From the IMG/VR virus record IMGVR_UViG_3300029319_009305, positions 43,886-107,885 of that record: a stretch of 64,000 nucleotides of DNA; one strand, written 5' to 3'. Shown in pieces: positions 35,898-64,000 of this stretch. Origin of the DNA: a virus. A program made the translations under genes and the position numbers. Within the stretch, counting starts at the first letter, position 1; the number at the start of each line of letters is the position of its first letter. The notes beneath the pieces are model-generated. The model searched no databases. It was not told where the DNA came from and saw nothing but the letters and a program-made list of their open reading frames with translations.

Positions 35898-35918
35898 ACC
35901 CTGTAAGGAAATAATAAA

Positions 35919-37229: not shown

Positions 37230-37231
37230 TT

Positions 37232-38759: not shown

Positions 38760-38764
38760 TTTTG

Positions 38765-38794: not shown

Positions 38795-38817
38795 ACAATA
38801 AAATAGGAGAAGTTAAA

Positions 38818-40940: not shown

Positions 40941-40941
40941 T

Positions 40942-43404: not shown

Positions 43405-43858
43405 GGATGAGTGGCCATTAAGAAAAATGTTAAAAATTGGTTTAGTCGCAGGTAATTTTGACGTAATCCATCCCGGGTATGTAAAAATGTTTCAAGATGC
43501 AAAAGAAAATGCGTGCAATTACTTGATTGTAGCTCTTCAAAGTGATCCAACCATCGATAGACCAGAAAAAAGCAAACCAGTCCAGACAATAGCTGAAAGA
43601 GAATATATTCTTTCATCAATAAGATACGTTGATGAAATACTTCACTATGATACAGAAATTGAATTACTTAATATTTTAAAGAACCATGATTACGACATAA
43701 GAATATTAGGATCTGATTACGATATTCCTGGAAAGAAATATACCGGTTCTGATCTTAACAAGCCTATTTATTTTCATAAAAGAGATCATGATTATTCAGC
43801 AACTGATCTCAAAACAAGAATAGCATTGCAAGTAATGAAGGAAAGAGATGGCAGATAG
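43394..43858 (+). CDS. cytidylyltransferase (TagD-like)
   Basis: GNFDVIHPGY, KPVQ...ER, GSDY, YSAT. Confidence 0.82.
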   Translation: MHTKDEWPLRKMLKIGLVAGNFDVIHPGYVKMFQDAKENACNYLIVALQSDPTIDRPEKSKPVQTIAEREYILSSIRYVDEILHYDTEIELLNILKNHDYDIRILGSDYDIPGKKYTGSDLNKPIYFHKRDHDYSATDLKTRIALQVMKERDGR

Positions 43859-45060: not shown

Positions 45061-45085
45061 AAATTTATTCTGCTGAGGTTTGCAA

Positions 45086-46342
45086 ATGAAAGAAGAAAAA
45101 AAGAAACTGAAGGTTTTGATATTATCTGATCACGCTCTATCTACAAGTGGAGTAGGAACACAAACTAGACACCTAGTGACAGGATTGTTAGAAAAAGATA
45201 CATGGACGTTTAGGCAGTTTGGAGCTGCTCTGAAACACACAGATTATAGAACAGTTGTTGTCAATGATGATTTTATTATTAAGCCTATTGATGGATTTGG
45301 TAATCCTGACTTAATAAGGGTGACTTTAGCCACAGAAAAACCCGACGTTCTGTTTATTTTTACAGATCCTAGATTTTTCATATGGCTTTTTGAAATGGAA
45401 GATGAAATACATCAAATTTGTCCAATTGTTTGGTGGCATGTTTGGGATAATTATCCATACCCACAATTTAATGATGTCCTATATCAGTCAACCGATTTAA
45501 TAAATTGCCATTCTCATTTAACTTATACAATGCTGAAGGAGCGATATCCAGATAAAACAAATTTTATTCCTCATGCTTTACCTGCTGAAATGTTTAAAAC
45601 TTTACCAAAGAAAGACTTGATTGAAAGTAAAAAGCAACTATTAGGTGAAAGCAGGCTTGATCATTTTGTAGGAGTATGGGTCAATAGAAATGCAAAAAGA
45701 AAAAGACCGAGTGATGTTCTTCATTCTTGGAAAATATTTTTGGATAATTTAGAAAAAAAGCATGGTCACAGGAAAGCAACCTTGATAATGCACACAGAAC
45801 CTACTGACAAAGAAGGACCTAATCTATATAAGGTTTCGGAAATGCTAGGTATTCAAAACAATGTTTTCTTTTCTCGGGAAAGGTTAGAATTTGAAGCAAT
45901 GAACATTATTTACGGAATATCAGACTTCTGCATTAATATTTCCTATGCAGAAGGCTTTGGTTTAGGAACTTTAGAAGCCATGATGACTGGTACTCCAATT
46001 ATTGCTGCAAAAACAGGCGGGATGACTCGACAAGTTGTTGATCACCGTGATGGGACACAGAACGGAGTTGCACTAGATATTGCGACCAAGTCTCTTGTGG
46101 GCAGTCAGGCTGTACCTTATATCTATGAAGACTATGTTGACGTTGAAGATACTGCTGATGCGATAATGAAAATGTTTGAAATGAATGATTATGAAAGAGA
46201 AATGCTCTCAGATAAAGTCAAGAAGTACGCAACAACACAATTTTCATTGCAAAAAACCGTAGATGACTGGCACGATACAATGCTTGATACAGTAGAAAAT
46301 TGGAAATCAAATTATAAAAAATGGGAGTGTTATGAGCTTTAG
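45086..46342 (+). CDS. GT4 glycosyltransferase
   Basis: SD...SGVG, NRNAKRK, AEGFGLGTLEAMMTGTP. Confidence 0.85.
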   Translation: MKEEKKKLKVLILSDHALSTSGVGTQTRHLVTGLLEKDTWTFRQFGAALKHTDYRTVVVNDDFIIKPIDGFGNPDLIRVTLATEKPDVLFIFTDPRFFIWLFEMEDEIHQICPIVWWHVWDNYPYPQFNDVLYQSTDLINCHSHLTYTMLKERYPDKTNFIPHALPAEMFKTLPKKDLIESKKQLLGESRLDHFVGVWVNRNAKRKRPSDVLHSWKIFLDNLEKKHGHRKATLIMHTEPTDKEGPNLYKVSEMLGIQNNVFFSRERLEFEAMNIIYGISDFCINISYAEGFGLGTLEAMMTGTPIIAAKTGGMTRQVVDHRDGTQNGVALDIATKSLVGSQAVPYIYEDYVDVEDTADAIMKMFEMNDYEREMLSDKVKKYATTQFSLQKTVDDWHDTMLDTVENWKSNYKKWECYEL

Positions 46343-46357: not shown

Positions 46358-47527
46358 ATGAAAGTAATAATAAGAGCACCACTTTTGTCCTTGAGCGGGT
46401 ACGGTATTCATTCAAGACAGGTTTTTGAATGGTTAGAATCTTTACCGGGAATAGATTTGAATGTAGAGATAGTTCAATGGGGTAGAACTGCTTGGATTTT
46501 GGATCAAGATCAGGATGACGGAATTGTTAAAAGAATAATATCTAAATCAAAACCACAGAAGGAAGGAATTAAATATGATTATTCCTTTCAAGTCCAGCTA
46601 CCTGATGAGTGGGATCCTAGTATTGCGAAACACAACATAGGCATATCAGCATTTGTTGAGACCGATCGATGTAACCCAAAATGGATTGAAAAGTGTAATG
46701 AAATGGATGCAATTATTGTTCCTTCGACTTTTACAAAAAATGTTGCAAAAAGATCTGGAGTTCTGAGAAAGCCTATTTACGTAGTGCCGGAATGGTTTAA
46801 TGAAAAAATTGAATTAGAAAGTATTGAACCGCTTGATCTTAAGTTGCGGACAAAGTTTAATTTTTTAATGATTGGAACGATAACTGCACAGACTGCTGAT
46901 GAAGATAGAAAAAATATTTTCTACGCAATAAAGTGGTTTTGTGAAAAGTTCAAAGATGATAAAAGAGTTGGTCTTGTGCTAAAAACTAGTTATGGTAAGG
47001 GCACTAAAATAGATAGACAGCTGACAAAAACTGCCATTCGACAAGTTTTAGGTGAAGTAAGAGAGGGAAAATTTCCCAAGGTTCACCTGATTCATGGTAA
47101 CCTAAATCAAGAAGAGGTTGCATCTTTATATAGACACCCAAAGATAAAAGGTGTGATATCAGCTACAAAAGGAGAGGGTTATGGACTTCCTCTTGTTGAA
47201 GGAGCTGCTTCTGGTTTACCTATTGTCGCGACAGGCTGGTCTGGGCACACTGAATTTCTAGAAAAAGGAAAGTATTTAGATGTTGATTACACTTTGAAAG
47301 AAATTACCAAAACAAGAATAGATGGTAGGGTTTTTGTTGAAGGTACAAGATGGGCTGATGTTAATGAGCGAGATTTTAAAAGAAAAATTAAGGATTTGAA
47401 AGATAGATATAGTTTACATAGTAAGAATGCAAAAAAAATGCAAAAATCCATTCATGAAAACTTTAGCAAAAAAGCAGTTATGAAAAAATATGATCAATTT
47501 TTTGATGAATTTAAAAGAAATATTTAG
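46358..47527 (+). CDS. GT4 glycosyltransferase
   Basis: SGYG, ET, RKN, GEGYGLPLVEGAASGLP. Confidence 0.85.
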   Translation: MKVIIRAPLLSLSGYGIHSRQVFEWLESLPGIDLNVEIVQWGRTAWILDQDQDDGIVKRIISKSKPQKEGIKYDYSFQVQLPDEWDPSIAKHNIGISAFVETDRCNPKWIEKCNEMDAIIVPSTFTKNVAKRSGVLRKPIYVVPEWFNEKIELESIEPLDLKLRTKFNFLMIGTITAQTADEDRKNIFYAIKWFCEKFKDDKRVGLVLKTSYGKGTKIDRQLTKTAIRQVLGEVREGKFPKVHLIHGNLNQEEVASLYRHPKIKGVISATKGEGYGLPLVEGAASGLPIVATGWSGHTEFLEKGKYLDVDYTLKEITKTRIDGRVFVEGTRWADVNERDFKRKIKDLKDRYSLHSKNAKKMQKSIHENFSKKAVMKKYDQFFDEFKRNI

Positions 47528-48615: not shown

Positions 48616-48981
48616 ATGTCAAAAACAATTGAAAAAGAAATTAAAAAAGCAAAGTCAAAAGAATCAAAGATAGAAAAGTTTAGTGATTTATTGGATAGTT
48701 TATCAGGTACAGAAGATAAAAAAAAGATGCTCTGGAAAGAAGCATACGAGAATGCTTTGTACGACAGAGAAAATGCTAATATACTTTTGACAGATCTGTT
48801 ATTACAAGTAAAAGGGAGTGTTCCTTTACATACGTCATTAGGTTCCATAATGACAAAGTATTTGGAAAGGATGTCAAAATCAAATGATCAAATACTTAGA
48901 CTCGCAGAATTAATAGCAAAAGAAGAGGAGGTTGATCAGATTTCTTCTGACGACATATTTAAACAAATACAGGGTAATTAA
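48616..48981 (+). CDS. helical hypothetical protein (terminase small subunit-like size, unconfirmed)
   Basis: SD AGGAG; coiled-coil character. Confidence 0.5.
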   Translation: MSKTIEKEIKKAKSKESKIEKFSDLLDSLSGTEDKKKMLWKEAYENALYDRENANILLTDLLLQVKGSVPLHTSLGSIMTKYLERMSKSNDQILRLAELIAKEEEVDQISSDDIFKQIQGN

Positions 48982-48982
48982 T

Positions 48983-50482
48983 ATGAAGTTAAGAGATCAT
49001 AGAATCTTCAATAGAGGTCGTCAGACAAGGCAATCATTAAGAAGCGCAGAAGAATCAGCTGAAATGTCAGCGCAAATGATTCAGGAAACAAACCATTTTG
49101 AGACAGCAATTGTAACAGAATTTATTAGTCATCCCGAATCATTCCTCAGAACTTCTGTTACTGTTGATGAACAAAGTACAAATAATTCACTTAGAAGTAA
49201 AACTAAGAATACCTTAGCAACATCAACGGGAATAGGTCTGAAAGGATCAACAATGCTTGAAGAGTTGACAACTGGAACAAAGAAGGTAAAAAATCCTTAC
49301 TTGGTGCAATTAATGCCCAGAAATAGTATTATTGGGATTAACATTACTGGTGGGAAGGCACACTCAGAGAAAGATGCTGAAGTGTTTTTTCCATTTTTCC
49401 CTGCACATTTAGGAATGCCTGTTAAACCTGGAGAGCAAGTATGGGTTTTTTACGAAAATATCGGAAAAAAAAGAGTAGGTTACTGGTTGTTTAGAAAAAC
49501 AGGAACAGTTCACATTGACGATCTGAACTATACATTCTTAGATCGACAAGAGTCTATAGCAGATTTAATGGCTATGAAAAACGATCCTAATGTTAGTTTG
49601 AATAAATCTAAGTTTAATACGCTAGTTGAAAATTTGGCTTACAGCTTTCCCGATCCAAGAGCCGCCGGCGATGGTTCAGGTAATTCAAGTATTAATCCTG
49701 ATAGTTTAGTAAAGGATTCTTTGAGTTATGATCGTGAGTTTATAGGCGAGCCCGTTCCAAGGTACAGGAAAAAATGTGGTGATTTAGTGTTGCAAGGTTC
49801 TAACAACACATTAATAACAATGACAGAAGAATCCGACATCACCACCGGCAAAATATGCTTAGTTGTCGGACGATCAGCAGATCCTACGAATGGTTTTGAT
49901 GATTTTGTTTCAAACAAAAGAGGGGATTCATCAAAGTCTTTAGAATATAGAGAAATAAATAAGACAAGGATAATTACAGACCCGAATAGTGTAACAGACG
50001 CTGAAGGGGATATCGTAGGCACTGGCGGGGAAAGCGCAAAGCTAGAGTTAAGGATGGCAGATGGAGGTGTTATTGATATGAGAACAACAAACAGCAGTAT
50101 TATTCATATTGATAATTCTCAAATTGTTTTAGCAAAGTCCGACACGTTCGATTATAGTAAGGGCCAAATTACTATTTTGGATGAATCATTAGGTATAGAA
50201 GCACCAGAAATGGTGAGTATTAAATCAAATGACATAACACTTCAGTCTAGTATTGAAGGGGGCATTAAAGCAACTAGCCTCGATGGTGAAGGTGGTGCAC
50301 TTTTATCACTTCAACCAATACAAGAATTTCTTGAGACATATAATTCAGCTACACCGGATGCAAAAGCACAGCTGCTTTTACCTCTTGGCACAGCAGCCCC
50401 AATAGTAGCTGCTATATTAGAATCAGGACTAGTAGAAACGGCATTAGAGCAGCTAGCTACAAAATACTTTTTCGCTGAGTAG
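48983..50482 (+). CDS. baseplate hub/spike protein, gp5-like OB-fold
   Basis: FFPFFP...MPVKPGEQVWVF, GDLVLQGSNNTLI; lies upstream of gp25 and gp6. Confidence 0.6.
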   Translation: MKLRDHRIFNRGRQTRQSLRSAEESAEMSAQMIQETNHFETAIVTEFISHPESFLRTSVTVDEQSTNNSLRSKTKNTLATSTGIGLKGSTMLEELTTGTKKVKNPYLVQLMPRNSIIGINITGGKAHSEKDAEVFFPFFPAHLGMPVKPGEQVWVFYENIGKKRVGYWLFRKTGTVHIDDLNYTFLDRQESIADLMAMKNDPNVSLNKSKFNTLVENLAYSFPDPRAAGDGSGNSSINPDSLVKDSLSYDREFIGEPVPRYRKKCGDLVLQGSNNTLITMTEESDITTGKICLVVGRSADPTNGFDDFVSNKRGDSSKSLEYREINKTRIITDPNSVTDAEGDIVGTGGESAKLELRMADGGVIDMRTTNSSIIHIDNSQIVLAKSDTFDYSKGQITILDESLGIEAPEMVSIKSNDITLQSSIEGGIKATSLDGEGGALLSLQPIQEFLETYNSATPDAKAQLLLPLGTAAPIVAAILESGLVETALEQLATKYFFAE

Positions 50483-50540
50483 CATCAATGTCAATATACA
50501 CGGTTCTTAAAAAAAAGAGATTAAAAATTTGAGTACGGAT

Positions 50541-50547
50541 TAATTAT
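50541..50547 (+). promoter_or_regulatory. TAATTAT putative late promoter
   Basis: 13 nt upstream of the gp25-like start. Confidence 0.45.
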
Positions 50548-50560
50548 AACAGAGGTAAAA

Positions 50561-51049
50561 ATGCCAACTTATTCTTTTAAAAGCTCTGGATTTTTAAATA
50601 GAAATACTGACGAGCGTGTCAACGCTGTTACTTTAAAGCCAATTGGGATCAAAACACCACTTGAATTTTCTAGAAAAAACCAAGATAGTTTATTCTCAAT
50701 GCATTATAAAGTTATAGATCAGATTCATGACAATCTTAGAAATCTCTTGCTAACAAACCCAGGCGAAAGATTAGGGCGACATGATTACGGCGCTGGATTA
50801 AGAGAAATGACGATGGAAATGATATCAAGTGAAAATTACGAGCACGCTGTGATGATGCGAATAAAAAACACAGTTGATATATACATGCCTTTCATTGATT
50901 TAGATAGTTTTGGAATTGACGATATTGTTTCGACTCCGTACGAATTGCAGGGTGGTATGAGTAAAGTTACAGTGACTATTGCTTACAATGTACCTAAACT
51001 ATCAATTGTTAACAAAAGATTACAATTAATTTTATATGTCGCAGGATAA
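50561..51049 (+). CDS. baseplate wedge protein, gp25-like
   Basis: QIHDNLRNLLLTNPGERLGRHDYGAGL...YMPFI. Confidence 0.85.
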   Translation: MPTYSFKSSGFLNRNTDERVNAVTLKPIGIKTPLEFSRKNQDSLFSMHYKVIDQIHDNLRNLLLTNPGERLGRHDYGAGLREMTMEMISSENYEHAVMMRIKNTVDIYMPFIDLDSFGIDDIVSTPYELQGGMSKVTVTIAYNVPKLSIVNKRLQLILYVAG

Positions 51050-51052
51050 ATT

Positions 51053-52906
51053 ATGCCTAAAAATATTAAGAAAGAAGCAAAATTAATTAGAGACACAAGT
51101 TACTTAAATAAAGACTTCGGAGGTTTCAGAAAAGACCTTTTAAATTATGCAAAAACACACTTTTCCGAACAGATCCGCGATTTTTCAGAGGTGTCAGTAG
51201 GGGGTATGCTTGTTGATATGGCTGCTTATGTAGGTGATGTTATGTCCTTCTACCTCGATCATCAGTATTCAGAATTAAATCTTGAAACAGCAATTGAGGA
51301 ACCAAACGTCCAGAGGTTGATTAGGCAGTCAGGTATCACAATAACAGGAGCTAGTCCTGCAATAGTTTCTGCAACTATTTATATTAGAGTTGATTCCGCC
51401 TTTGATATTAAGACGCAGTCATACATACCCAATCATCGGCAGCTACCTATTTTAAAAGCAGGTACAAAAGTAGCTTCAGTCGACGGAACTGTTTTTGAGT
51501 TAACCCAAGACTATGATTTTGCAGAGAAAAATTTAACTAATGAATTGATAAGTTCAGTTTCCACAGGTAATACTGATAATAATGGGACAGTTTTAGATTA
51601 TATAGTTTATAGAGACTGTATTTTTACTAGTGCAATTTCTAAAACAGAAACATTTAATATTTCTAATGAATTTATTCCTTTTAGAACAATTGATTTAGCA
51701 GAATCTGATATTAGCGAAATTGTATCTGTTTATGATAGTGAAAACAATCATTATTATGAAGTAAAGTCTCTAACACATGACGTTGTTTATAGAAGGTTCA
51801 ATAATGTTAAAAGTGATAGTGACTTAGTTCATGATAAATTAGGGATTATTCCTGCTCCTAGAAGATTCACAAAAGAATTTTCTTTGCTAGATGGAAAGAC
51901 AACAATTAGGTTTGGTTCAGGAAGAGCAGATACCTATGAGGATGATATAGTACCAGATCCATCAGATCATGCTTTGCCCTTGTACGGAAATAAAAGAACT
52001 TTCAGTAGATTTTCCATAGATCCTAACAAGATGTTAGAAACTAGAACATTAGGCGTATCGCCTATCAATACAACACTAACAGTAACTTATAGACACGGAG
52101 GCGGTTTTGGGCACAACGCTTCTCCCGGGCAAATTATTAATATTGTAAGCTTAATCACAAAATTTAATTCAGCGATAAGTGCGACAAAAGTAAGAAACAT
52201 AAGAAATAGTATAGAAGTTTATAACGAAAGTAGAGCTTCTGGTGGAACTGATAGACCTACTCTCAATGAAATGAGAGCAGTAGCATTAAATTACCAAGGA
52301 TCGCAAGACAGAATTGTTACAAAGCAAGACTTGCTTACTAGAGTTTACACTATGCCTTCAAATTTTGGACGGGTTTACAGAGTCGCAGTTAGAAAAAATA
52401 ATTTTTCACAAAATACTGCACTGGTATCTATATTGACTAAGAACGAATTAGGTTATTTAGATTATGCAACTGATACTTTAAAAAAGAACATTGCCAAATA
52501 TATTAATGAATACAGACTTATTGGGGATTCAATTGATATACTTGATGGAACAATATTGAATTATGGTATACGATTTTCAATAACAGTTGATAATAGGTAT
52601 AATGATAGCAATGTGTTAGTAAAAGTGATAAATAAAATTAAAAAATTTACTAGAACAGAAAATTTTCAAATTGACCAACCTATTAATTTAACTGACATAT
52701 CGCTATTAATTGTATCAACTGATGGAGTCAATACATTGAATAGTTTAGAAGTAATAGAAAGAAAAGGGAGCGTCAATGATAGGCTTTATTCATCTAATTC
52801 ATTTAACATCAAGGAATCAATAGTCAAAGGTATTCTATATCCAGTTCCTGGTGGCATGTTTGAATTAAAATATCCTAATGATGATATTCAAGGAAGGGCA
52901 ATATAA
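51053..52906 (+). CDS. baseplate wedge protein, T4 gp6 / baseplate-J-like
   Basis: YLNKDF, DFSE, AYVGDVMSFYLD, IRFGSG, ASGGTD, QDRIVTKQD. Confidence 0.85.
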   Translation: MPKNIKKEAKLIRDTSYLNKDFGGFRKDLLNYAKTHFSEQIRDFSEVSVGGMLVDMAAYVGDVMSFYLDHQYSELNLETAIEEPNVQRLIRQSGITITGASPAIVSATIYIRVDSAFDIKTQSYIPNHRQLPILKAGTKVASVDGTVFELTQDYDFAEKNLTNELISSVSTGNTDNNGTVLDYIVYRDCIFTSAISKTETFNISNEFIPFRTIDLAESDISEIVSVYDSENNHYYEVKSLTHDVVYRRFNNVKSDSDLVHDKLGIIPAPRRFTKEFSLLDGKTTIRFGSGRADTYEDDIVPDPSDHALPLYGNKRTFSRFSIDPNKMLETRTLGVSPINTTLTVTYRHGGGFGHNASPGQIINIVSLITKFNSAISATKVRNIRNSIEVYNESRASGGTDRPTLNEMRAVALNYQGSQDRIVTKQDLLTRVYTMPSNFGRVYRVAVRKNNFSQNTALVSILTKNELGYLDYATDTLKKNIAKYINEYRLIGDSIDILDGTILNYGIRFSITVDNRYNDSNVLVKVINKIKKFTRTENFQIDQPINLTDISLLIVSTDGVNTLNSLEVIERKGSVNDRLYSSNSFNIKESIVKGILYPVPGGMFELKYPNDDIQGRAI

Positions 52907-54462
52907 TGTATAGGGTTCTAAGCGCTAGTCAAGACACATATATAACGAATAAAATAATTAGAAATAGTTTTAGAGCAACTGACGCCAACACAGGACAAGC
53001 AGGAACTCTAGACTTATTTAAACTATATGGTGAATCCGTATCAGGTAGTGCTGACAACCCTGTTGAAATTTCTCGTGCATTAGTAAAATTTGATTTGACA
53101 CCTTTGAGCACAATGTTAACAAACGGTGACATTGACATTAACAACTCTTCTTTTTCTGCGACATTAGTTTTAAGAGACGTATACGGGGGGCAGACAACAC
53201 CTAATAATTTTAAAATGATAGCTCTACCCTTAGCCCAACAATTTCAAGAGGGTATTGGTAGAGATGTTGTAACTTTTCAAGATTTAGGATCTTCTAATTT
53301 TATCACTGCTTCTTACGAAAATGGAACTTACAATTCTTGGAATACACAAGGTGCTATGAAGTCAGGGAGTTTAGGTGATGGAAGCATTGACGTCATCGTT
53401 AGCGGATCTTTAGAGGGGCCCTCTGGGACACAAACCTTGAATTTATCTTCAGAGCAATATTTTAGTACAGGCAAGGAAGATTTTTCTGTTGATGTGACAA
53501 ATGCAATATCAGGCACAGTTTCAGGACAAATATCTAATCATGGGTTTTTAATAGCATATTCTGGTAGCTATGAAAACGATACTAAAACTTATTTTGTAAA
53601 AAGATTTGCATCTAGAAATTCGTCACGGGAAGACTTAAGGCCAAAAATTATTATTAAGTACAATGACGCAATAATAGATAATCACGAAAATTTTATATTT
53701 GACGTAACAGGATCTATATTCTTAAACAATTATCACAGGGGTACACTAAGTAATATTTTATCAGGGGCAGGATCTCAAAGTACGCAAATTACAGGGCACA
53801 ATTGCTTGAAAGTTAGACTTGAGTCAGGATCATTTACTAAAACAGTAACAGCATCGCAGTATTCTATTGGAGACAATTTTCAAGCAGGAATATACTCGGC
53901 ATCTTTTGTAGTATCACGATATGATGCTAGCTTAATTGAGCATTTAAAAAGTTCAACGTCTGCTTCATTTGATGCAATCTGGTCATCAGGGACTGATTTG
54001 TTTCCTGATTATAATAGCTCAGTTGCTTATCATTCTGGATCTTTAGTAATAAAAACACCTTCAAGAACAGCATTTAATGGAGGACAAAAACGGCTTCTCT
54101 TAACCATGGAAAATTTAAGACCTAATTATAGAAAAGATGACTTGGTAAAACTTAGAGTTTTTATTGAAGATCGTGATAGACAAATCAATTTTAAGAAAAA
54201 ACCTTTTGCGACAAAATCACAAGTTTACGAAAGCATGTTTTATCAAGTTAAAGATGCACAAACAGACAGAATAATTATTCCTTTCGATAGCACAGGAAAT
54301 AGCACAAAATTATCATCAGATTCTGAAGGGATGTATTTTAATTTTTACTTAGATAGCTTACCTGCAGGAAAAACTTATAAATTTGAATTCTTAATAAAGG
54401 ATTTCAATAGCGACTATTTTATTAAAGATGTATCAGCAAAGTTTAGTGTTGACCTAGATTAA
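52906..54462 (+). CDS. virion structural protein (baseplate-associated, beta-rich)
   Basis: ASQDTYI, SRALVKFD, C-terminal IIPFD...SDSEGMYF; operon context. Confidence 0.65.
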   Translation: MYRVLSASQDTYITNKIIRNSFRATDANTGQAGTLDLFKLYGESVSGSADNPVEISRALVKFDLTPLSTMLTNGDIDINNSSFSATLVLRDVYGGQTTPNNFKMIALPLAQQFQEGIGRDVVTFQDLGSSNFITASYENGTYNSWNTQGAMKSGSLGDGSIDVIVSGSLEGPSGTQTLNLSSEQYFSTGKEDFSVDVTNAISGTVSGQISNHGFLIAYSGSYENDTKTYFVKRFASRNSSREDLRPKIIIKYNDAIIDNHENFIFDVTGSIFLNNYHRGTLSNILSGAGSQSTQITGHNCLKVRLESGSFTKTVTASQYSIGDNFQAGIYSASFVVSRYDASLIEHLKSSTSASFDAIWSSGTDLFPDYNSSVAYHSGSLVIKTPSRTAFNGGQKRLLLTMENLRPNYRKDDLVKLRVFIEDRDRQINFKKKPFATKSQVYESMFYQVKDAQTDRIIIPFDSTGNSTKLSSDSEGMYFNFYLDSLPAGKTYKFEFLIKDFNSDYFIKDVSAKFSVDLD

Positions 54463-54483
54463 GCAACAAGGATTAAATGAACT

Positions 54484-57400
54484 ATGACAAAAAAATCTAT
54501 TTTATCAAATCAGAATCCTGGAACTGCTTTATTCGATAACAATTTTAAACACTATAAAACAATTGGATTTGATAACGATACAGCAGGGAATTTTAAAAAA
54601 TTTAAGTCCATGAGAGATTTATCTGAACTGTCAAAGGAAGAAACTTTTTTTGAAGATGACTATAGATTTGACGGTCCTGACTCTGGCGTAAGATCAACAC
54701 AGCAAATAAATTTAGATTACGAAGTGTTTGAAAATCACGTATTTTTTGATTCTGCTGTATCTAAAATTAATATTGCATTTGATAAGATTGTGAATGAGTT
54801 TCCCTTTGAAAAAACTGAAGCTGAACTTAATGAATATCTGCAAAGCTTAACTGGTTATGAGCGTTACATATTGAATTTGTTTGGTAAATCTTTAGGGTAT
54901 TTAACGTTGTCTGGCTCTGCTGTGGGTGAAAATTCAGGAGGTCAATATATTGAGATTAAAGATTCTGCTGGATCTTTATACCCGACGTTTTCTACAAGGA
55001 ATGATACTAAACCTGTATTAAGCCCTAAAAACAGCCCGTTTACGATTGAAGCATATATTAGTCTACCAACAGTTGTTAATGACAACCAGGTAATATTCCA
55101 GTATAAAAAAACTGAAAAATTTGGAATCATGCTCTCGTTAAGCGCTTCTGACGACACTTCTAAATGCAATATAGTTTTCGATGTGACGTCAGGGTCAAAT
55201 CATAGTTATGTATCATCTAGTTTTGATAAGGGTAAATTTTATCATGTTGGGGCCGCTTATTCTGTATCCAATAACCCGGGAAAATCTTTGCTTTACATAG
55301 ACTCTGTGTTGAAAGCAACGTCATCAATGACCTTAGAACTTACAAATTTTGATTTAAGTGCACAAGACTCAAAAGCTTACATAGGCTCTGGAAGTATTTT
55401 AAATACAGCAAATGCAGACCCAGACATATCGACAGGAGTTTTTACTCCCCAGCAGACTTTTTCCGGATCAATTGACGAATTTAGATTTTACCATCTAGAG
55501 AAAAATGAAAAAACAATTAAAGACACAATGAAAGTTAATATTTTTGGCGGGAGCGAATCTAAGTTAGCATTGTATTTTAAGTTTAATGAACCATCTGGGA
55601 GTTATCGACTTCCATCTGTGTGTTTAGATTCATCAGGTAATAGTCTTCATTCAAATATTACTAATTTCTCACATGAAATAAGAAATACGGGCAGCATATC
55701 GACACCCGTCACAGAAGAAATATTAAATAATAATCCAATATTATACCCTGATTTTCCAAAAAATACAGACTTGCACAACAGACTCATTAATTCGGCTAGC
55801 TTGTATGATGAGAAAAATCCAAATTTAATAACGAATTTAATACCTGTCCATTATCTTTTAGAAGGTAACGATTTTGAAGGCTTTCAAAACATGACTGGAT
55901 CTTACGGGAATGTTTATAAATCGCAAAGCATACCAGGATCGGGTCAGGTAGGTTCAGGGCAGCTCTTGATGTCATTCTTATTTTTATGGGCAAAGTATTT
56001 TGACGAGTTAAAAATATATATAGACACGTTATCGAGAGTGTTAAGTTACGGATACGATACAAACGAAGTAGGAATTGATAAATTTTTACCTTTTGTAGGT
56101 AAATACTACGGCATAGATCTACCCGGTATTTTCACTTCAGCAATGCAACGTCAATACAACAAAAATGTAGGAATTAATGATTTAGGCACTGTATCAACTT
56201 TATCTTTGCGAAAAGTTCAAAATCAAATTTGGAGAAGGATACTAACTAATTTAAATGCATTGAGACAATCTAAGGGAACAATATCTTCTGTAAAGGGCAT
56301 GATAAGAACCCTAGGTGTAGAGCCTGATACAATTTTCGATATTAGGGAATATGGAGGTCCTAAAGCTTTTTTCTTAGATGGTAGAAGAAAAAATATTAAA
56401 AAATCTTATAAGATGATAGATTTTTCTGGAAGCCTTGCTGACATATCAGATATTGCAACTGTTGATTCTAATACGGGTTTCAACACAAGGACACCCAGAA
56501 TAATTAGTCCATTCTTGTCAGGATCTAGAATTGAAGTAGGTTTTCCTGAAATAAAAACGGGCACTGCAACAGGTACCGTCACTATTGGTAATAGTGCTAC
56601 AGCCACAAATTTAGACGGTAAGATTATTGAAATAACAGATACAGCTGGATTAGAGAAAGTTTACATATTTGATGATGATAATGATGGTGCAACAGGAACT
56701 TTAGACGGCAGCAACAGAGTTAGAATTCAAATAAACGGCATGATGAGTTCCACAGCAGGAAGAATATTGATGGCAGCACAAGTTAAGGCTGCAATAGAAC
56801 ACGCTAATGGCCATGCAGGCTCTATAACAGTTTCAACAACTGACCAGATTGTAGGCTTGACTCAAGGTTCGTTTAATGCGAATGACGGTAATAACGCAAT
56901 AAAAACTTCTGTGACTGATGCGACTCATTTGGCAGTGTCTGGTTTCTCCGGAGGTTTTGGATATTTAAACCAGCCAAATCATAATTTTGTTCACGGAATA
57001 TCAAACAATCCTAATGATGGCTTGTTTACATCTGGATCTTTCGGGTACGATGCTGTATACAAGTTTGAAACTAATTTAAGATTCCCTTTGACACAGAGTT
57101 TGGTTAGGCTTCACATGACTGGATCTAGCGTTTCAAATTCAGCACGTTTAGTTACGAATTGTGTTTTAGTTTCTGGTTCAAGTCCTGAATTGAAGCTATT
57201 TGTTGATGCCGCCACCGCCGGCGCTAGCGCTTCAGACACAGCAAGATTACAAACTTTAGCAATAAATAGCGCCAGCTTTTTTAATGGGAACCCTTGGTAC
57301 GTAAGTTTTGGTCTAATAAGAAATGATGACAATATTATACAGGATGAGCAGTACGCTTCGTCTTCATTGTTTTTAAGAGCAATATCAGATGATGAAATTT

Positions 57401-58440
57401 ACTACGTGACTAGTTCACTTGATATGAATTATTACAATAGTACAGAAAATTATTTTCAAAACATAGATGCAGCAAAAAATGCCAGTGGTTCTTTTTTAAT
57501 AATCGGATCTCAAAGTATAAAACTTGACGGATCATCGTCACCTGTAGGATTGAGTGCAACTGGATACAACAGGATTGTTAGGGCAACAGATTTTGCTGGT
57601 AAGATTAATTTTATTAGGTTTTGGTCGAGGGGAATATCACTAGAAGAGTCACTAGAGCGGGCTAAAAACTTTAGATCTCTAGGTGTAAAAGATCCTACTT
57701 TCCAATATAATCACAACACTTTGCATACTGGGTCTTTCAACAGGTTAAGGATTGATGCAAAAACCTCAATACAGATTGCAACAGCTTCAGACAGTTCTGG
57801 TCAGATAAGATTAGATGACTTTAGTCAAAACAATTTACATTTTGTAGGGAACGGTTTTGAGCCCGAACAAGTAATTCTTAAAAATGAAATGTTTCTTCAT
57901 TCTATGCTCAGTCCTAAATTTGATATTAGGGCTTCTGATATGAAAGTTCGAGTTAGAAGCTTTTTGGAAAAAGAAAATCTGGAGAATGATGATTTTGCAA
58001 AAGCGACTCCTGTTTTTAATTTAGATGATGAATTTTCACCTGAAGATGACAATAGGTTTTCTATAGACCTGAGTGTTGTCAAAGCATTAGACGAAGACAT
58101 CATGAAAATGTTTGCCAGCATGCAATCTTTTGATAATGCTTTAGGTGATACAAGAGACCTTTTTGAAGATAGTTATATTGAATTAGAAAATTTAAGAAAA
58201 ATATACTTTAAAGACTTAATTCAAAAATTAAATTTAAGTAGTTATAGCGAATTTTTTACTTGGTTTGATGAAGCATTTACTTCACTGTTGTCAGGTTTTA
58301 TTCCTTTGAGGGCAAATTTTTTAGGTGTCAATTACGTCATCGAATCGCACGTTTTAGAGCGACACAAAATGAAATATTTTTATGATGAGCAGTATTTGCT
58401 TACAAGAACAGAAACAAGAGATAGGTTTGGTAACGTATGA
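54484..58440 (+). CDS. large LamG-domain baseplate/tail protein (gp7-like core)
   Basis: LamG motifs FTIEAYI, YHV, LYIDSV, FSGSIDEFRFY; IWRRIL...KGT...IREYG. Confidence 0.7.
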   Translation: MTKKSILSNQNPGTALFDNNFKHYKTIGFDNDTAGNFKKFKSMRDLSELSKEETFFEDDYRFDGPDSGVRSTQQINLDYEVFENHVFFDSAVSKINIAFDKIVNEFPFEKTEAELNEYLQSLTGYERYILNLFGKSLGYLTLSGSAVGENSGGQYIEIKDSAGSLYPTFSTRNDTKPVLSPKNSPFTIEAYISLPTVVNDNQVIFQYKKTEKFGIMLSLSASDDTSKCNIVFDVTSGSNHSYVSSSFDKGKFYHVGAAYSVSNNPGKSLLYIDSVLKATSSMTLELTNFDLSAQDSKAYIGSGSILNTANADPDISTGVFTPQQTFSGSIDEFRFYHLEKNEKTIKDTMKVNIFGGSESKLALYFKFNEPSGSYRLPSVCLDSSGNSLHSNITNFSHEIRNTGSISTPVTEEILNNNPILYPDFPKNTDLHNRLINSASLYDEKNPNLITNLIPVHYLLEGNDFEGFQNMTGSYGNVYKSQSIPGSGQVGSGQLLMSFLFLWAKYFDELKIYIDTLSRVLSYGYDTNEVGIDKFLPFVGKYYGIDLPGIFTSAMQRQYNKNVGINDLGTVSTLSLRKVQNQIWRRILTNLNALRQSKGTISSVKGMIRTLGVEPDTIFDIREYGGPKAFFLDGRRKNIKKSYKMIDFSGSLADISDIATVDSNTGFNTRTPRIISPFLSGSRIEVGFPEIKTGTATGTVTIGNSATATNLDGKIIEITDTAGLEKVYIFDDDNDGATGTLDGSNRVRIQINGMMSSTAGRILMAAQVKAAIEHANGHAGSITVSTTDQIVGLTQGSFNANDGNNAIKTSVTDATHLAVSGFSGGFGYLNQPNHNFVHGISNNPNDGLFTSGSFGYDAVYKFETNLRFPLTQSLVRLHMTGSSVSNSARLVTNCVLVSGSSPELKLFVDAATAGASASDTARLQTLAINSASFFNGNPWYVSFGLIRNDDNIIQDEQYASSSLFLRAISDDEIYYVTSSLDMNYYNSTENYFQNIDAAKNASGSFLIIGSQSIKLDGSSSPVGLSATGYNRIVRATDFAGKINFIRFWSRGISLEESLERAKNFRSLGVKDPTFQYNHNTLHTGSFNRLRIDAKTSIQIATASDSSGQIRLDDFSQNNLHFVGNGFEPEQVILKNEMFLHSMLSPKFDIRASDMKVRVRSFLEKENLENDDFAKATPVFNLDDEFSPEDDNRFSIDLSVVKALDEDIMKMFASMQSFDNALGDTRDLFEDSYIELENLRKIYFKDLIQKLNLSSYSEFFTWFDEAFTSLLSGFIPLRANFLGVNYVIESHVLERHKMKYFYDEQYLLTRTETRDRFGNV

Positions 58441-59603
58441 CAAGCATAGTAATAAAATCAAAAAAAGAAATAACAGATATATTTAACGAAGATTCAACGA
58501 TAGGAAAATATAGGATTGGAAGAACGTTATCTATTGATAAGCCTGTAAAAAAAGAATCATCTTTTGATCCACTAGCTGTTCCTACCGAAGCTGCATTTCT
58601 TCAGAGAGCGGATGTTATTGGTTACCAGTCTGCCACCGGATCATTTACAGGAGTTAAATCTACTTTGTGGGAGTCAGAAAGTCCTACACAGTTATCAGCA
58701 TCTGGCAGTTATTACCAAAATTCAAAAATTCGACAAGGGGTCTCCATAAGATCTACTTTTGACCTGGAAGCTGACGCTTTGCCTTACGTTTACATTCAAG
58801 GCGGATCTTCACCTTACCCTAATCATATTTTTGAAAATTTTTTACCGTCTTTTGACGAGGACTTTTTTGGTGTCAAAGAAAAGTTAAATAGAAGAAATTA
58901 TGTACCCTTTGAAGATATAATAGATCTACATCCGCAAAGATTGTCTGCTAGCGTGTATTTAGAAATGGAGGATCCGTACGCCGCCGGTATTTACCCTAAG
59001 TATTCGGGATCTCATTTTAGAAATAAATTTGACATGAATGGTATCATAGAACCTTTCGAATTAACAAGAAGGCGCCATGACATACAACAGGTCGATACAA
59101 CTTCGATATATTCAGCGAGAAAGTTCTTTTCAGGAATAAGCGCAACTGTAATGGGTAGTGAGAGGGAGTTTAGAGGATCAGGAAGAGGAGATAACCCACG
59201 AAAAGGATCAACACAAATCGTTCAGTATTACGATGTGAGGGATTCACACAATCCTGACGTTGATTTTTTTGACGATTCTCGTGAAATAGTTATACTCAAC
59301 ACAGATAAAATGAAAAAAATAAGTGCACTTGAAAATAGTCAGCAACATATTCTTAGATTTTTTGATGATACATTAGACTATGATTTAAGCAGTTATGCTT
59401 TTGCTTTAGAAACTTCACCTGATAGTATTCCTGATTTACTGTACGGGCTAAATGTTCAGCCACCGTACAATGAGAGGAGTGAGATTGGTACCAGGTTTGT
59501 TTCGGCAAAAGCAGGATTTGTTTACGAAACTACAACTGTAGGTAATACTACTTTAGGGACAGATTCAATTGCGTTTGGCGGATTGGGGAAGATAAATGCC
59601 TAG
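58437..59603 (+). CDS. putative virion protein
   Basis: Coupled in the structural operon; NGIIEPF, GTDSIAFGG. Confidence 0.6.
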   Translation: MTSIVIKSKKEITDIFNEDSTIGKYRIGRTLSIDKPVKKESSFDPLAVPTEAAFLQRADVIGYQSATGSFTGVKSTLWESESPTQLSASGSYYQNSKIRQGVSIRSTFDLEADALPYVYIQGGSSPYPNHIFENFLPSFDEDFFGVKEKLNRRNYVPFEDIIDLHPQRLSASVYLEMEDPYAAGIYPKYSGSHFRNKFDMNGIIEPFELTRRRHDIQQVDTTSIYSARKFFSGISATVMGSEREFRGSGRGDNPRKGSTQIVQYYDVRDSHNPDVDFFDDSREIVILNTDKMKKISALENSQQHILRFFDDTLDYDLSSYAFALETSPDSIPDLLYGLNVQPPYNERSEIGTRFVSAKAGFVYETTTVGNTTLGTDSIAFGGLGKINA

Positions 59604-62600
59604 AAAAAGAAAAGATAGATACGATCTCGGTGCACCTTTCAAAGCGCCTAATGGAAAAAGTTATACTGCAAAATCAGTGGAAAGCTTAGTTCTTTGGCTT
59701 GATTTTGCATCAACATTGATTGACAGGACGAGCAACCCCAATGTTGAAACGCCAACCCTTGAATATCAAGGATCAGTGCCTACGAGAAATGAAAAAATAG
59801 AAGATAGTATAAATTTTTATAACATTGCAAGGTTTGATAATAGCGAAAATTTAAATGCGCTAGCAACATACGATGCTGTAACAAATCCGATTAATTTCGG
59901 AGACGGAACAACTGACAAGCCTTTTTCTGTAAGTCTGTGGTATAGAAGAAGTGGAACTTTGGCAGACACAACGACTGAAAACTTGTTCTACAAGGGAGAC
60001 ACATCTTCAAAGACAGAGTATCAAGCATATATAACCATGGTCGCAATACTAGCATTTCAAGTACTTGACGAATCAACAGGAGCTCACCGGAGAGCTTTTA
60101 TAGACTTTGGTGACTTAGCAGATATTGACAATATTTGGATGCATCTTGTTTTTACATATGATGGGTCAGGAACTTCAGCAGGCCTAAAAATATATAGGGA
60201 TGGAGTTTTGTTAGCAACGTCAACAAACGATAGCGGTACATATACTGCCATGGAACAACAATCAACAAAGCTTTTTATAGGCGCTAGTCATGACGGTTCA
60301 TCTGAAGCTGACGGAGATTTTGCAGAATTTGCTATTTGGTCTCGAGAGTTGCCAGCTGATGAAATATCAGCAATATACAATGCGACAACATCGCTTACAC
60401 TGGAGTCATCTGGAATTGTTAATTCTCCCATTAGATCACGAATACGTGAAATGGATAGTAGGATTGGCATGTATCCAACAATAGGGCGAACAGGTGATAG
60501 AGATAGGAAAGGCTTCGGGTCAGTATTAGCTTTTGATGATCGAAATACCCAATTATTTGGTGCACCTGTTTTAGATGACAAATATTACCCAGTATCGCTT
60601 ACTCAAAATTTCTCTTCTGAACGAAACTATCAGTATGGCTATTCAAGCGCAGCATCTTTAATTGAATGGTTTCACATTGGAAAGTTTGCTGCTGATGGAG
60701 TAACTCCTTCTGTTGCGGTAAGAAAAGCAACAGGGGTTCAGACTGTTCAACTGGTCAGTGACCCAATTAAGTCTTCAATAACAATAGGAAATTACACATA
60801 TGATTCTATAACTTTTGACGATACTGATAATTCATATGTTCGTCTTAATTTTGCATCAACAGATAATACTCTGACTTTCGGAGATGGATCAGATGACACT
60901 CCGTTTACTTTTAGCTGGATTATGGAATTGACGCCTGCTGGTTTAGGTAAGCTATCGAACTCTATATCAAATGAATTATTTGCAAAGAGCGATGGAACTT
61001 CGAAGCAAGAATATTACGCATCAGTTCTGTCAAATGGTCAATTAAGCATAGTCTTGATGGATGAATCATCCGGAGGTTTTATCCAGGGTAAATCATCTGA
61101 ACCAGCTGACAAAGTAGATTTTTGGTCTAGACCACGCCACGTCGTTGTTACATACGATGGTTCAACTAACAACTCAGGAATAAAGTGGTACGTTGATGGT
61201 GTTTTAGACACAGGAACACCCGGAGGCGGAGGATCTTATACTGCATTGGAACAGAATTCAGATCATTTTTACTTTGCTACAAACGAATTCAATCTAGGCA
61301 CTAAAATTGGTGATCTTAAAATGGCTGAATTAGCTGTTTGGGGTGTGGAGCTAACGCCACAGGAAGTGCAGACTGTTTATAATTTTATAACTAAACCCAT
61401 ATTTAAAGATCCGGGTTACATTTTAGACTCAGGTACTTGCTTGTTATCAGGTGGTTTCATTGCAAACCAACACAAGCATTTTTCAACTCCAAATCAACCA
61501 GGGTCCCGTTTTGTTGTGACAGGAAATATGTTGGCAGGGGTTGCAGATAATTTTGATTCAACAGATTACAAATATTTAGCTGCAGTTGACAAGAACAATG
61601 AATCAATAACAGCGTTTAATGAAGCAAAAGTTATATTAAAAGATAATGAATTTTACTTAACTGGCACAAGCGAAACAACTTTTCCAGGATTTTCTGGTCG
61701 TTTGCATGACAAGACACAAATACAGATTGACCTTAGCACTAATGAGCCTACAAAATTTGGTTACACGGAAAAATCAACTTTCAAGAGAGACGGAGCAGCC
61801 CATGTTTCTATTGGCGGTACATCAGGACATTCAACGCTTACACTCGACGGATCAAATGTTCGCACGCAGTTAATGGTTTACTGGAATAACACTTTGAAGC
61901 GTTGGGAAAAAATTGCGAAAGGTGTTGGCGCAAATACACAACAGCATACAAGAAATGATTCTAATATTAGTATGTATAAAGAATTAGGTGAGATGATAGA
62001 TACAGCTGCTATTGGTTTTGGTAATTGTTCCGGTATTATTGCAACATCATCTGTCCGGACAGAGGAATCTGGTGAAGAGCAACAAACTTACGATTTACAA
62101 CCAGAGTCTGTTATTAAAATGATGGGCAAGCCAACGTCTGTATACGGTTTTCCTTCGCATGGTAAGTTTCATGCAACGGGAAGTCAAACAATTAAAATGA
62201 GTGACTATATTGATCGACCAGTTGTTTTAGAAAAATGTAATTTACAATTTTCTGCAAAGTTACAATTTGCTAATGATGGAGGGGCAGATCATCGGATGTT
62301 TGTATCAATGGTTGGTAGTTCATCCGCAGGAATTCCTTCAACTTACGCTTACGAAGATGATTTCATAAATATGATGCCAACATTTTTTATGCTTAGACAA
62401 TTTAAGCAAGGCAATGAAGTAACTTACAAAAGAGACTTTTCTTTAAATTATAATATCGCAGATTCTCCTGGGACAGGTTATGGTAATCTATATGGTACAT
62501 ACAAAAAAGGTGTTGCGTTACTTTCACTTAGACTTTCGCAAACAGGTAGTAGTCTGCATGATATGGATTTTACGCTACCTGGATTTTTTCAATTAGCTTC

Positions 62601-64000
62601 TGGGTCAGATACAACAACTTATGTTGATACAAACAGAGACTTAGTAACTTTTGGTCAAATCAATTTCTTCGCGAAAGGACAACCTGCACACACTAGATTT
62701 AACGCGACAGATCTTATTGATAAAATGGCAGGGGACGCAAAGGTTAACTTACTTAATAAGTTTGGATCAGCTTCGGAAGGTGTTCTTTGGCAAGGAAACG
62801 TTGTCGGAGCTGGTACAACTTTACCTGATTATACAGGTAGTTATCAAATGGACTTCCCGTGTAGAACTGTTCCTGTGTTACCTCCGCGGTTTGGAAGTGC
62901 TGTACAATTTGCTACGTCATCAGGCGGAACAACGTATTATTATGGAATACTAGGTAATGAGTTTGATGGAGGTCGTACACTAGCTTTGAACAATACAGTA
63001 CCTTCTGTTGGTCCTGAGTCATTACCAGAAAGAGTTAATCCAGCAAATATGAGCATAACAGGGAGAAGTTTAACTAGAGAAATTGCTGCTTATGATCCGG
63101 GCGTTGTTGCACCACTAAAGTTGTCAGATACTTCGACAGATGCGCTGGTAGATGTTTCGTTGCCTAGCATTGAAACACTAGACGTTGATTCTCCTTACAT
63201 TTTATTTCCTGAGGATGAAATTGTTTTAGGGTGGCAGTATCCAATGCCCTCAACTTACGGATTAGCAAATCATTTGCCTAACTCAATTTTCTCGACAGGG
63301 TCAAATCACATGGTTTTGGATGGACCGTCAACACTTACGCTTTTCTGTTCACAAATAAAAAATAACGTTGAGTATCATGACACCTTAAATCAACCTTTAA
63401 CTTCTGAGGTAATTCACGAATCCATACATTACGACAATCCTGTGATAGATCAATGGCAAGTATCTTTGAGAGGGGAGTATACGGGTAGTTACTTAGACGA
63501 TTATTCTAACAGTTCAGGTATTGGCACGATTGTAGATACTTACCTAAATAGTGGCAATCAACTGGCAGGTTCCTTTCAAAGGTTTGTGCGTTGTAGTGGT
63601 AAAGACGATATCCTTTATGACTCGATGTTACCTGATCCTTTAGCTTTGTGGACACATCAAACAGGTATATCAACTTACCTGTCTTCAAGCGGCGAAAGAT
63701 TTGTAAGTTTTGGTTTGTCTGGCAGCGCTGTTGATGATGAATTGGTTGACGCTGTAGGTAATTCAAACCCTGATTGGTTTAGATCTTTTGTATACAACAA
63801 CGATCTTAAGCGTGTTCCTGTTAAATCACAGGTTGCAAATTTAGCAAACACAGTTTTGTTATTTAGTGATGGAAAATCATCAGCAACTGCTTTTGGAAAT
63901 ACAGCAGATCAAAAAATCAGCTTATTTAAAGGATTTAATTTTAACGGTACTTCAGAGGTTAGTGCAAAAGTTATAATTGGAAATGCAGATCAAAGAGAGA
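59596..64000 (+). CDS. very large tandem-LamG virion/tail protein, 3' truncated by the window
   Basis: ATG at 59596 overlaps the previous stop; no in-frame stop seen by eye to 64000; LamG motifs PFSVSLW, WMHLVFTYDG, KIYRDG, EFAIWSREL and a second copy HVVVTYDG, WYVDG, ELAVWGVEL. Confidence 0.8.
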   Translation, partial: MPRKRKDRYDLGAPFKAPNGKSYTAKSVESLVLWLDFASTLIDRTSNPNVETPTLEYQGSVPTRNEKIEDSINFYNIARFDNSENLNALATYDAVTNPINFGDGTTDKPFSVSLWYRRSGTLADTTTENLFYKGDTSSKTEYQAYITMVAILAFQVLDESTGAHRRAFIDFGDLADIDNIWMHLVFTYDGSGTSAGLKIYRDGVLLATSTNDSGTYTAMEQQSTKLFIGASHDGSSEADGDFAEFAIWSRELPADEISAIYNATTSLTLESSGIVNSPIRSRIREMDSRIGMYPTIGRTGDRDRKGFGSVLAFDDRNTQLFGAPVLDDKYYPVSLTQNFSSERNYQYGYSSAASLIEWFHIGKFAADGVTPSVAVRKATGVQTVQLVSDPIKSSITIGNYTYDSITFDDTDNSYVRLNFASTDNTLTFGDGSDDTPFTFSWIMELTPAGLGKLSNSISNELFAKSDGTSKQEYYASVLSNGQLSIVLMDESSGGFIQGKSSEPADKVDFWSRPRHVVVTYDGSTNNSGIKWYVDGVLDTGTPGGGGSYTALEQNSDHFYFATNEFNLGTKIGDLKMAELAVWGVELTPQEVQTVYNFITKPIFKDPGYILDSGTCLLSGGFIANQHKHFSTPNQPGSRFVVTGNMLAGVADNFDSTDYKYLAAVDKNNESITAFNEAKVILKDNEFYLTGTSETTFPGFSGRLHDKTQIQIDLSTNEPTKFGYTEKSTFKRDGAAHVSIGGTSGHSTLTLDGSNVRTQLMVYWNNTLKRWEKIAKGVGANTQQHTRNDSNISMYKELGEMIDTAAIGFGNCSGIIATSSVRTEESGEEQQTYDLQPESVIKMMGKPTSVYGFPSHGKFHATGSQTIKMSDYIDRPVVLEKCNLQFSAKLQFANDGGADHRMFVSMVGSSSAGIPSTYAYEDDFINMMPTFFMLRQFKQGNEVTYKRDFSLNYNIADSPGTGYGNLYGTYKKGVALLSLRLSQTGSSLHDMDFTLPGFFQLASGSDTTTYVDTNRDLVTFGQINFFAKGQPAHTRFNATDLIDKMAGDAKVNLLNKFGSASEGVLWQGNVVGAGTTLPDYTGSYQMDFPCRTVPVLPPRFGSAVQFATSSGGTTYYYGILGNEFDGGRTLALNNTVPSVGPESLPERVNPANMSITGRSLTREIAAYDPGVVAPLKLSDTSTDALVDVSLPSIETLDVDSPYILFPEDEIVLGWQYPMPSTYGLANHLPNSIFSTGSNHMVLDGPSTLTLFCSQIKNNVEYHDTLNQPLTSEVIHESIHYDNPVIDQWQVSLRGEYTGSYLDDYSNSSGIGTIVDTYLNSGNQLAGSFQRFVRCSGKDDILYDSMLPDPLALWTHQTGISTYLSSSGERFVSFGLSGSAVDDELVDAVGNSNPDWFRSFVYNNDLKRVPVKSQVANLANTVLLFSDGKSSATAFGNTADQKISLFKGFNFNGTSEVSAKVIIGNADQRE

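Follow-up and report, generated by a model that had tools for sequence, protein, structure and literature searches.

A Ser/Thr tripeptide kept in the external tail proteins of a myovirus lineage and its candidate role in O-glycosylation

The last 64 kb of the 107.9-kb IMG/VR virus record IMGVR_UViG_3300029319_009305 (hereafter the window; a partial genome with a G+C content of approximately 33%) ends in four consecutive genes whose products carry a short motif, [ST][GA]S, many times over. The same stretch encodes two glycosyltransferases (GTs) of the GT4 type, here called GT_A and GT_B. The locus raises the question of whether the motif marks the residues at which the phage attaches sugars to its own virion. 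We found that the motif is a protein-level signal, long kept in the external tail proteins of one myovirus lineage. It occurs in the baseplate periphery and fibres and, in relatives, also in the sheath and a neck-region protein. Regarding its function, our sequence comparisons lead us to propose, with slightly less than even confidence, that it may be the acceptor site for virion O-glycosylation by GT_A and GT_B.

The gene order in this part of the window, with the named genes on the plus strand, is a PD-(D/E)XK nuclease, GT_A and GT_B, small genes, a gp5-like gene, gp25, a gp6-like wedge gene (617 residues) and then the four motif-bearing proteins W518, W1318, W388 and W1468. Copies of the motif in each were compared with composition-preserving shuffles. 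W518 (518 residues; 52906..54462), a baseplate-periphery protein encoded directly 3' of gp6, holds 12 copies against 1.8 expected (z = 8.0), all of them within residues 1-380. W1318 (1318 residues; 54484..58440) holds 19 against 3.3 (z = 9.0), nine in residues 131-480 and ten in residues 641-1110. W388 (388 residues; 58437..59603), for which Pfam and PHROG searches gave no match, holds five against 0.87 (z = 4.6). The fibre-like W1468 (59596..64000), which is cut by the window end and is at least 1468 residues long, holds eight against 4.2 (z = 2.0). These values confirm the enrichment over shuffled controls and bear out an earlier sequence-only reading of this DNA. That reading had counted about 12, about 19 and several more copies by hand and quoted five examples (HATGSQ, LASGSD, DYTGSY, EYTGSY and GLSGSA), all of which were found.

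The marginal score of W1468 taken whole hides a sharp division within the protein. Residues 1-860 hold no copy where 2.6 are expected, whilst the last 608 residues (861-end) hold all eight (1.7 expected, z = 5.0). Both LamG_3 domains of W1468 lie near its N-terminus within the empty part, whereas the single LamG_3 domain of W1318 (residues 181-345) holds four copies. The motif is thus tied to protein regions and not to the fold. It is likewise missing from the core baseplate genes (48932..52906), which served as negative comparators: no copies were present in the gp5-like protein, gp25 or gp6, with 1.10, 0.14 and 0.86 expected, respectively. When the nine open reading frames (ORFs) from 44186 to 52906 were pooled, none was found against 3.1 expected (P = 0.046). 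These counts support the claim of a motif, selected at the protein level, that abounds in peripheral tail proteins and is missing from the core baseplate.

In a scan of all 8,000 tripeptides SGS ranked first (20 versus 3.5 expected, p = 1e-9), TGS second and SAS fourth; SGT, SAT and DGS were also raised and NGS was absent. Relative to composition, the enrichment amounts to 4-6 fold. Under the stricter dipeptide-preserving shuffles, enrichment stayed significant in the first three proteins (z = 3.3 for W518, 3.5 for W1318 and 2.5 for W388), with only whole W1468 falling short (z = 0.8). A DNA repeat or hidden domain duplication was ruled out, in agreement with the sequence-only reading. The 44 sites comprise 41 distinct 9-mers and use both TCN and AGY codons at both Ser positions, identity between their flanks is no higher than in random windows (0.062 versus 0.065), and BLASTP found no shared similarity among the four proteins.

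Conservation of the motif was followed through related viruses. The 120 homologues of W518 examined (51-100% identity) carry 9.2 copies on average, with 1.4 expected, and the positions of the sites are fixed. Conserved sites lie at residues 6, 134, 153, 166, 202, 219, 268, 307, 331, 350 and 377; their outer positions swap Ser and Thr and their middle position swaps Gly, Ala and Ser, with Gly invariant at several. The sites of W1318 are also conserved, in an alignment of 48 sequences. Among 80 related IMG/VR loci with enough flanking sequence, all have the same gene order and all carry both GT_A and GT_B. The W518 homologues at these loci contain 705 copies where 116 are expected, and the ORFs downstream of them 1,216 where 358 are expected. 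W518 gave no match to cultured phages by tblastn, or in a first single-sequence search of viral contigs. As a separate observation, the ORFs from the GT genes through gp6 at the same 80 loci (L002-L081) hold 103 copies against 193 expected, or approximately half; this deficit could be motif avoidance, although the loci are homologous and so not independent.

GT_A (45080..46342) and GT_B (46358..47527) both pass the gathering cut-off of Pfam family PF00534 (26.4 bits), scoring 46.7 and 29.5 bits. Both keep the E-x7-E signature (E291-x7-E299 and E273-x7-E281), which is conserved in relatives. Only GT4-type models matched them in a Pfam scan at E<=0.01. The pair is better conserved across the related loci than the structural genes, and GT_A is the best-conserved gene of the block, at 64-73% identity compared with 41-50% for gp6 and 48-58% for W518. 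A search of 50,697 phage records, cultured or deposited, returned homologues of GT_A in just four: Microcystis phage Mel-JY01, Flavobacterium phage immuto, Rhodothermus phage RM378 and LR756508, a 484-kb uncultured phage. A full-length GT_B orthologue lies beside GT_A in immuto and Mel-JY01, RM378 has a weak GT_B match, and in LR756508 no GT_B was detectable. We had considered immuto, Mel-JY01 and LR756508 as GT-less controls, there being no GT within 20 kb of their baseplate genes, but GTs are encoded elsewhere in their genomes and they were rejected for this purpose.

Motif density was then set against presence of the GT4 pair, using whole-genome observed/expected ratios over ORFs of at least 250 residues, a comparison that is not phylogeny-corrected. 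The four phages with the pair had ratios of 2.28 (this phage), 2.24 (immuto), 2.43 (Mel-JY01) and 2.09 (RM378). By contrast, the eight phages without it ranged from 0.78 in T4 through 0.80 (crAss001), 1.05 (Ma-LMM01), 1.17 (SPO1), 1.21 (KVP40), 1.32 (phi38:1) and 1.44 (S-PM2) to 1.54 in HTVC008M, so that the two ranges (2.09-2.43 and 0.78-1.54) do not overlap. RM378 was a test of prediction, its GT_A homologue having been found first and its enrichment confirmed afterwards. LR756508 has a gp6-like protein 31% identical to that of this phage and a GT_A next to a glycan island, but the proteins encoded after its gp6 are not enriched (9 copies versus 4.4 expected, and only two of 52 of the hydrophobically flanked patterns described below). 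The motif is thus enriched only where both members of the pair are present, in the 13 phage genomes compared. The sequence-only reading had also named relatives lacking GTs as a test case. No close relative of that kind exists among the 80 loci, all of which carry the pair, and so a clean comparison is not to be had there; LR756508, with no detectable GT_B and no enrichment, favours that reading.

The controls included a Microcystis phage (Ma-LMM01) and two Bacteroidota phages (crAss001 and phi38:1), all negative, indicating that the host is not the cause. Nor is the motif a generic feature of phage fibres and baseplates: T4 gp8-12, wac and gp34-38 all gave z<1.5 and the seven further phages are not enriched. 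One protein of S-PM2 (179513-181216) is strongly enriched (8 versus 1.5, z = 5.6), the only such case among the eight GT-negative controls.

Enrichment in the relatives is confined to tail and neck components. In immuto it includes the tail sheath, whilst the tape measure (1 copy versus 2.7 expected), gp6 (0) and the major capsid protein (3 versus 1.2) are not enriched. The most extreme carrier is the immuto tail spike (L082, 35293-38454), with 53 copies against 12 expected. Its N-terminal third is built from SGSF, TASY and SASY runs that recur periodically and end in 'GDGSxL'; C-terminal repeats of the 'SHAEG' type follow. The Mel-JY01 protein at 635-3052 was set aside as a motif carrier, as its collagen-like G-[ST]-S is a separate phenomenon. 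This collagen-like tail fibre with its G-[ST]-S triplets adjoins an enriched 508-residue protein and a 1227-residue ORF that contains a GT4 domain (L103, 635-8430). The Mel-JY01 genome also encodes a protein annotated as a prolyl 4-hydroxylase (L083, 3084-3683).

The motif has preferred neighbours, even though its wider flanks are unrelated. In this phage a hydrophobic residue stands at -1 in 50% and at +3 in 57% of sites, against a background of 33%, with Phe and Tyr common at +3. The flanks in immuto are more strongly hydrophobic still (61% at -1 and 72% at +3). As a working consensus from these sequences, the motif is best written Φ-[ST]-[GA]-[ST]-Φ, where Φ is hydrophobic and often Phe or Tyr on the C-terminal side. 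The underlying backbone pattern, Φ-x-[GA]-x-Φ, is no speciality of these phages and occurs at similar density in all sets (12-19 per 1,000 residues). What differs is how often both x are Ser or Thr. In GT-pair phages this holds for 16-46% of the patterns in peripheral proteins, compared with 3% for T4 gp7-12, wac and gp34-37 and 2% for the remaining proteins of this phage, the latter two values being near the compositional expectation. As only the choice of Ser/Thr differs, selection acts on the hydroxyl residues and not on the fold. The lineage thus has no surplus of a fold element, but appears to set hydroxyls on a single face of a commonplace one, in folds that are otherwise unrelated. The motif was found on a CBM/Ig-like sandwich, LamG domains, fibre repeats and the sheath.

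Structure prediction places these sites largely in or beside β-strands. The AlphaFold model of W518 (predicted local distance difference test score, pLDDT, 84; predicted template modelling score, pTM, 0.83) is an all-beta chain of sandwiches. Its best PDB matches are carbohydrate-binding module (CBM) and Ig/FN3-like folds, including chondroitin- and alginate-binding CBMs. Of its 12 sites, seven fall within strands and three at their edges; a loop and a helix cap hold one each. In the model of W1318 residues 120-520 (pLDDT 77), the LamG part is the confident region, and each of its five sites comes right after a strand, at the start of one or in a hairpin turn. By the secondary structure of these two models, strands contain seven of the 17 confidently placed sites and strand ends or hairpin turns eight, the remaining two being those in the loop and at the helix cap. 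By the usual alternation of strands, the two motif hydroxyls are predicted to point away from the hydrophobic face. The expectation that the motif would sit mainly on exposed beta-turns is thus not supported in that form and is at best half right: about half of the sites are at strand ends and turns, but seven of 17 are within strands, and the flanks are hydrophobic.

How might O-glycosylation account for these results? GT_A and GT_B, which are lineage-specific, would add the first sugar to the Ser or Thr of the motif in the cytoplasm, and the adjacent glycan islands, whose gene content differs by lineage, would add the outer sugars. The motif residues would then carry sugar, GT_A and GT_B would be the priming enzymes and the sites should be solvent-exposed in the virion. 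A fuller version of this proposal, which we hold rather more tentatively, is that the motif may be the sequon of a phage-encoded cytoplasmic O-glycosylation system in which the GT4 pair primes baseplate-periphery, fibre and sheath proteins at dozens of positions and variable islands build serotype-like outer glycans. The system would be common to an abundant marine myovirus lineage and to cultured relatives infecting Bacteroidota, Rhodothermota and Cyanobacteria.

The GT pair always borders a glycan island of varying content. In the window this island of glycan and nucleotide-sugar genes lies upstream of the pair (16770..43858, plus strand). From Pfam and NCBIfam scans it encodes GT2 and GT4 enzymes, GDP-mannose dehydratase-like proteins, NeuB, cytidylyltransferases, a UDP-sugar dehydrogenase, methyltransferases, radical SAM enzymes and a split transketolase. 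Two stretches inside it (27916-31244 and 35919-39534) hold a B12-binding radical SAM enzyme, the split transketolase, a DUF4910/DUF2172 protein with a winged-helix domain, a CMP-sugar cytidylyltransferase, a radical SAM/SPASM enzyme and a short NeuB-like synthase, which together suggest an unusual nonulosonic-acid or branched-sugar pathway.

The case for glycosylation overall is circumstantial, and several observations weigh against it. Literature searches on immuto, Mel-JY01 and RM378 found no glycoprotein or proteomic data. The best matches of GT_A and GT_B among PDB sequences and NCBIfam models are generic GT4 enzymes such as MshA, BshA, GlgA and PBCV-1 B736L, from which no acceptor can be read. 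The sequence-only proposal that the motif is the acceptor for these adjacent GTs is supported in part, by co-occurrence across the 13 genomes. The GT-positive phages are probably one lineage, and hence the split of four against eight reflects one or two evolutionary events rather than twelve. The seven W518 sites modelled inside β-strands between hydrophobic residues would be unusual for known O-glycosylation sites. Further, W518 is highly conserved on all faces, and its motif Ser residues do not exceed the remaining outward-facing strand residues in conservation (p = 0.56). Within the LamG domain, the stretch F-SGS-IDEFRFY coincides with the generic LamG_3 pattern 'F.G.iDevriy', and the Gly may there be structural. 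Non-virion proteins of the GT-pair phages show no motif avoidance. Finally, GT_A lies beside DNA-metabolism genes in RM378 (Pol I-like DNA polymerase and ribonucleotide reductase, RNR) and LR756508 (thymidylate synthase and nuclease), a placement that would be compatible with a DNA-modifying role.

Several of these points would also fit an unmodified structural element. A small Ser-Gly/Ala-Ser run between large hydrophobic residues would let strands pack tightly on sheets or subunits, or form tight hairpins, and co-occurrence with the GTs would then be shared ancestry. We regard this as a serious rival, albeit a somewhat doubtful one. It fits the location of the sites within strands or at their ends, the hydrophobic flanks, the fixed positions and invariant Gly, and the periodic fibre repeats of the immuto spike. 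The all-face conservation of W518, with no special constraint on Ser, is as expected of a tightly packed wedge component, and a single GT-positive lineage would supply the shared ancestry. The backbone pattern, however, is as frequent in T4 and the seven other phages, without preference for Ser/Thr, and unrelated folds and flanks carry the motif in the GT-pair phages. The motif favours Ser over Thr, despite the better strand-forming propensity of the latter. The N-terminal LamG_3 domains of W1468 do without any copy, against four in that of W1318, and therefore the fold does not require the motif. LR756508, moreover, has the baseplate core in common but neither a detectable GT_B nor enrichment of the motif.

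Alternatively, the paired hydroxyls on the strand faces could act unmodified as an adsorption surface that binds host polysaccharide or ordered water. The CBM-like domain of W518, whose best matches bind chondroitin and alginate, the presence of LamG/ConA-like lectin domains and the limitation of enrichment to host-facing tail proteins would all suit such a role. Nevertheless, we consider it improbable. The motif is shared although the hosts come from three phyla whose surfaces differ; the sites, spread over numerous domains, form no one recognisable face; carbohydrate sites normally use aromatic and charged residues; and the immuto tail sheath is also enriched.

Less probable again is that the motif receives a different modification, such as phosphorylation or one dependent on radical SAM chemistry, with the GT4 pair acting on DNA or the host envelope. 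The window does encode a PrkA/YeaH/SpoVR triad and SPASM and B12 radical SAM enzymes, and GT_A stands beside the PD-(D/E)XK nuclease here (44186..45031, plus strand; Pfam), in immuto and in LR756508, and beside the Pol I-like gene and RNR in RM378. However, the motif is not known to be a target of any kinase or radical SAM enzyme, the GT pair always borders a glycan island, and no thymidylate-synthase-like base hydroxymethylase was found on the contig, a partial genome. A paper on glycosylated 5-hydroxycytosine does not mention immuto, Mel-JY01 or RM378. The search of this partial genome did not find a Maf-type protein O-glycosyltransferase either.

Lastly, an artefact of Ser- and Gly-rich composition, for which only the high Ser content of the proteins (10-13%) and the marginal score of whole W1468 could speak, is refuted by both kinds of shuffle, the first rank of SGS among tripeptides, the repetition of the enrichment in 120 homologues and 80 loci, and the equally Ser/Thr-rich but unenriched T4 fibre proteins, and its probability is negligible.

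The arrangement of the enzyme genes in the relatives adds some detail. The block from nuclease to GT_A is conserved in this phage (44186-47527), immuto and LR756508 (L165, 3965-7884; L167, 3690-6748). Directly upstream of it LR756508 has a thymidylate-synthase homologue, and in the place of GT_B a 261-residue protein with no Pfam match. In RM378 the GT pair is located between the Pol I-like gene and RNR. Elsewhere in the window, the YeaH (DUF444)-SpoVR-PrkA triad is complete and phage-encoded (8086-12541), and an N-terminal PIN domain is fused to a PhoH-like ATPase (15400-16713).

Only a handful of phages are known to glycosylate their virions, and they do so on terminal tails of capsid and tail-tube proteins; no earlier description of a defined acceptor motif in the tail proteins of a phage was found in the literature. 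If O-glycosylation of the motif is true, a widespread marine phage group sugar-coats the tail parts that meet the host, which would help to explain the glycan islands of up to approximately 30 kb in these phages and would tell mass spectrometry precisely which residues to examine. As immuto, Mel-JY01 and RM378 are three cultured phages with both the motif and the enzyme pair, the idea is directly testable. Should the motif instead be purely structural, it would be an unusual lineage-specific design rule for β-strands, of use to structure predictors and annotators.

Known glycosylation systems resemble the candidate system to different degrees. The sequence-only reading had compared the motif with the Ser-Gly acceptor of proteoglycan xylosyltransferases. 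The likeness is a Ser next to Gly, but the acceptors of those enzymes are flanked by acidic residues, and the enzymes themselves are of another family. With hydrophobic residues at -1 and +3 in 50% and 57% of sites (33% background) and GT4 enzymes as candidates, the analogy was not sustained. GtfA and GtfB, which O-GlcNAcylate serine-rich-repeat adhesins, are likewise an adjacent GT-B pair acting on Ser in an S-A-S/S-x-S context. GtfB is however a non-catalytic partner, and their substrates are long low-complexity repeat regions. A pair of this kind with one inactive member was rejected for our phage: both GTs keep E-x7-E, and the sites are dispersed over folded beta domains with unrelated flanks.

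Chlorovirus PBCV-1 offers a virus-encoded nucleotide-sugar pathway, soluble cytoplasmic GTs and sites that do not follow host sequons, and its B736L is among the weak matches of GT_A. The PBCV-1 glycans are N-linked and decorate the major capsid protein of a virus of eukaryotes, whereas here the candidate is O-linked and on bacteriophage tail proteins.

The geometry of the sites brings the Aah/TibC O-heptosyltransferases to mind. These cytoplasmic enzymes modify Ser/Thr of beta-rich adhesive proteins and read a strand-loop-strand shape with the acceptor at the loop start and no strict sequence (PMC3835316, citing Charbonneau et al. 2012). A similar geometry is predicted for W518 site 307 and W1318 sites 143, 220, 236 and 302, and for about half of the placed sites overall, the others lying within modelled strands. 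By contrast, GT_A and GT_B are identified only as GT4-type enzymes and not as heptosyltransferases, and a recognisable sequence motif is present here.

Among phages, the nearest parallel is with mycobacteriophages, whose own GTs decorate their structural proteins in the cytoplasm, with glycans on C-terminal extensions of capsid and tail-tube subunits (Freeman et al. 2023, as described in PMC12619734). Phage-encoded cytoplasmic GTs with the phage's own virion proteins as substrates, here candidate substrates, would be common to both. Known from sequence alone, the system proposed here would differ in having dozens of dispersed internal candidate sites in baseplate-periphery and fibre proteins. 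It differs further in the capsid protein, which is not enriched in immuto, and in a far larger set of genes.

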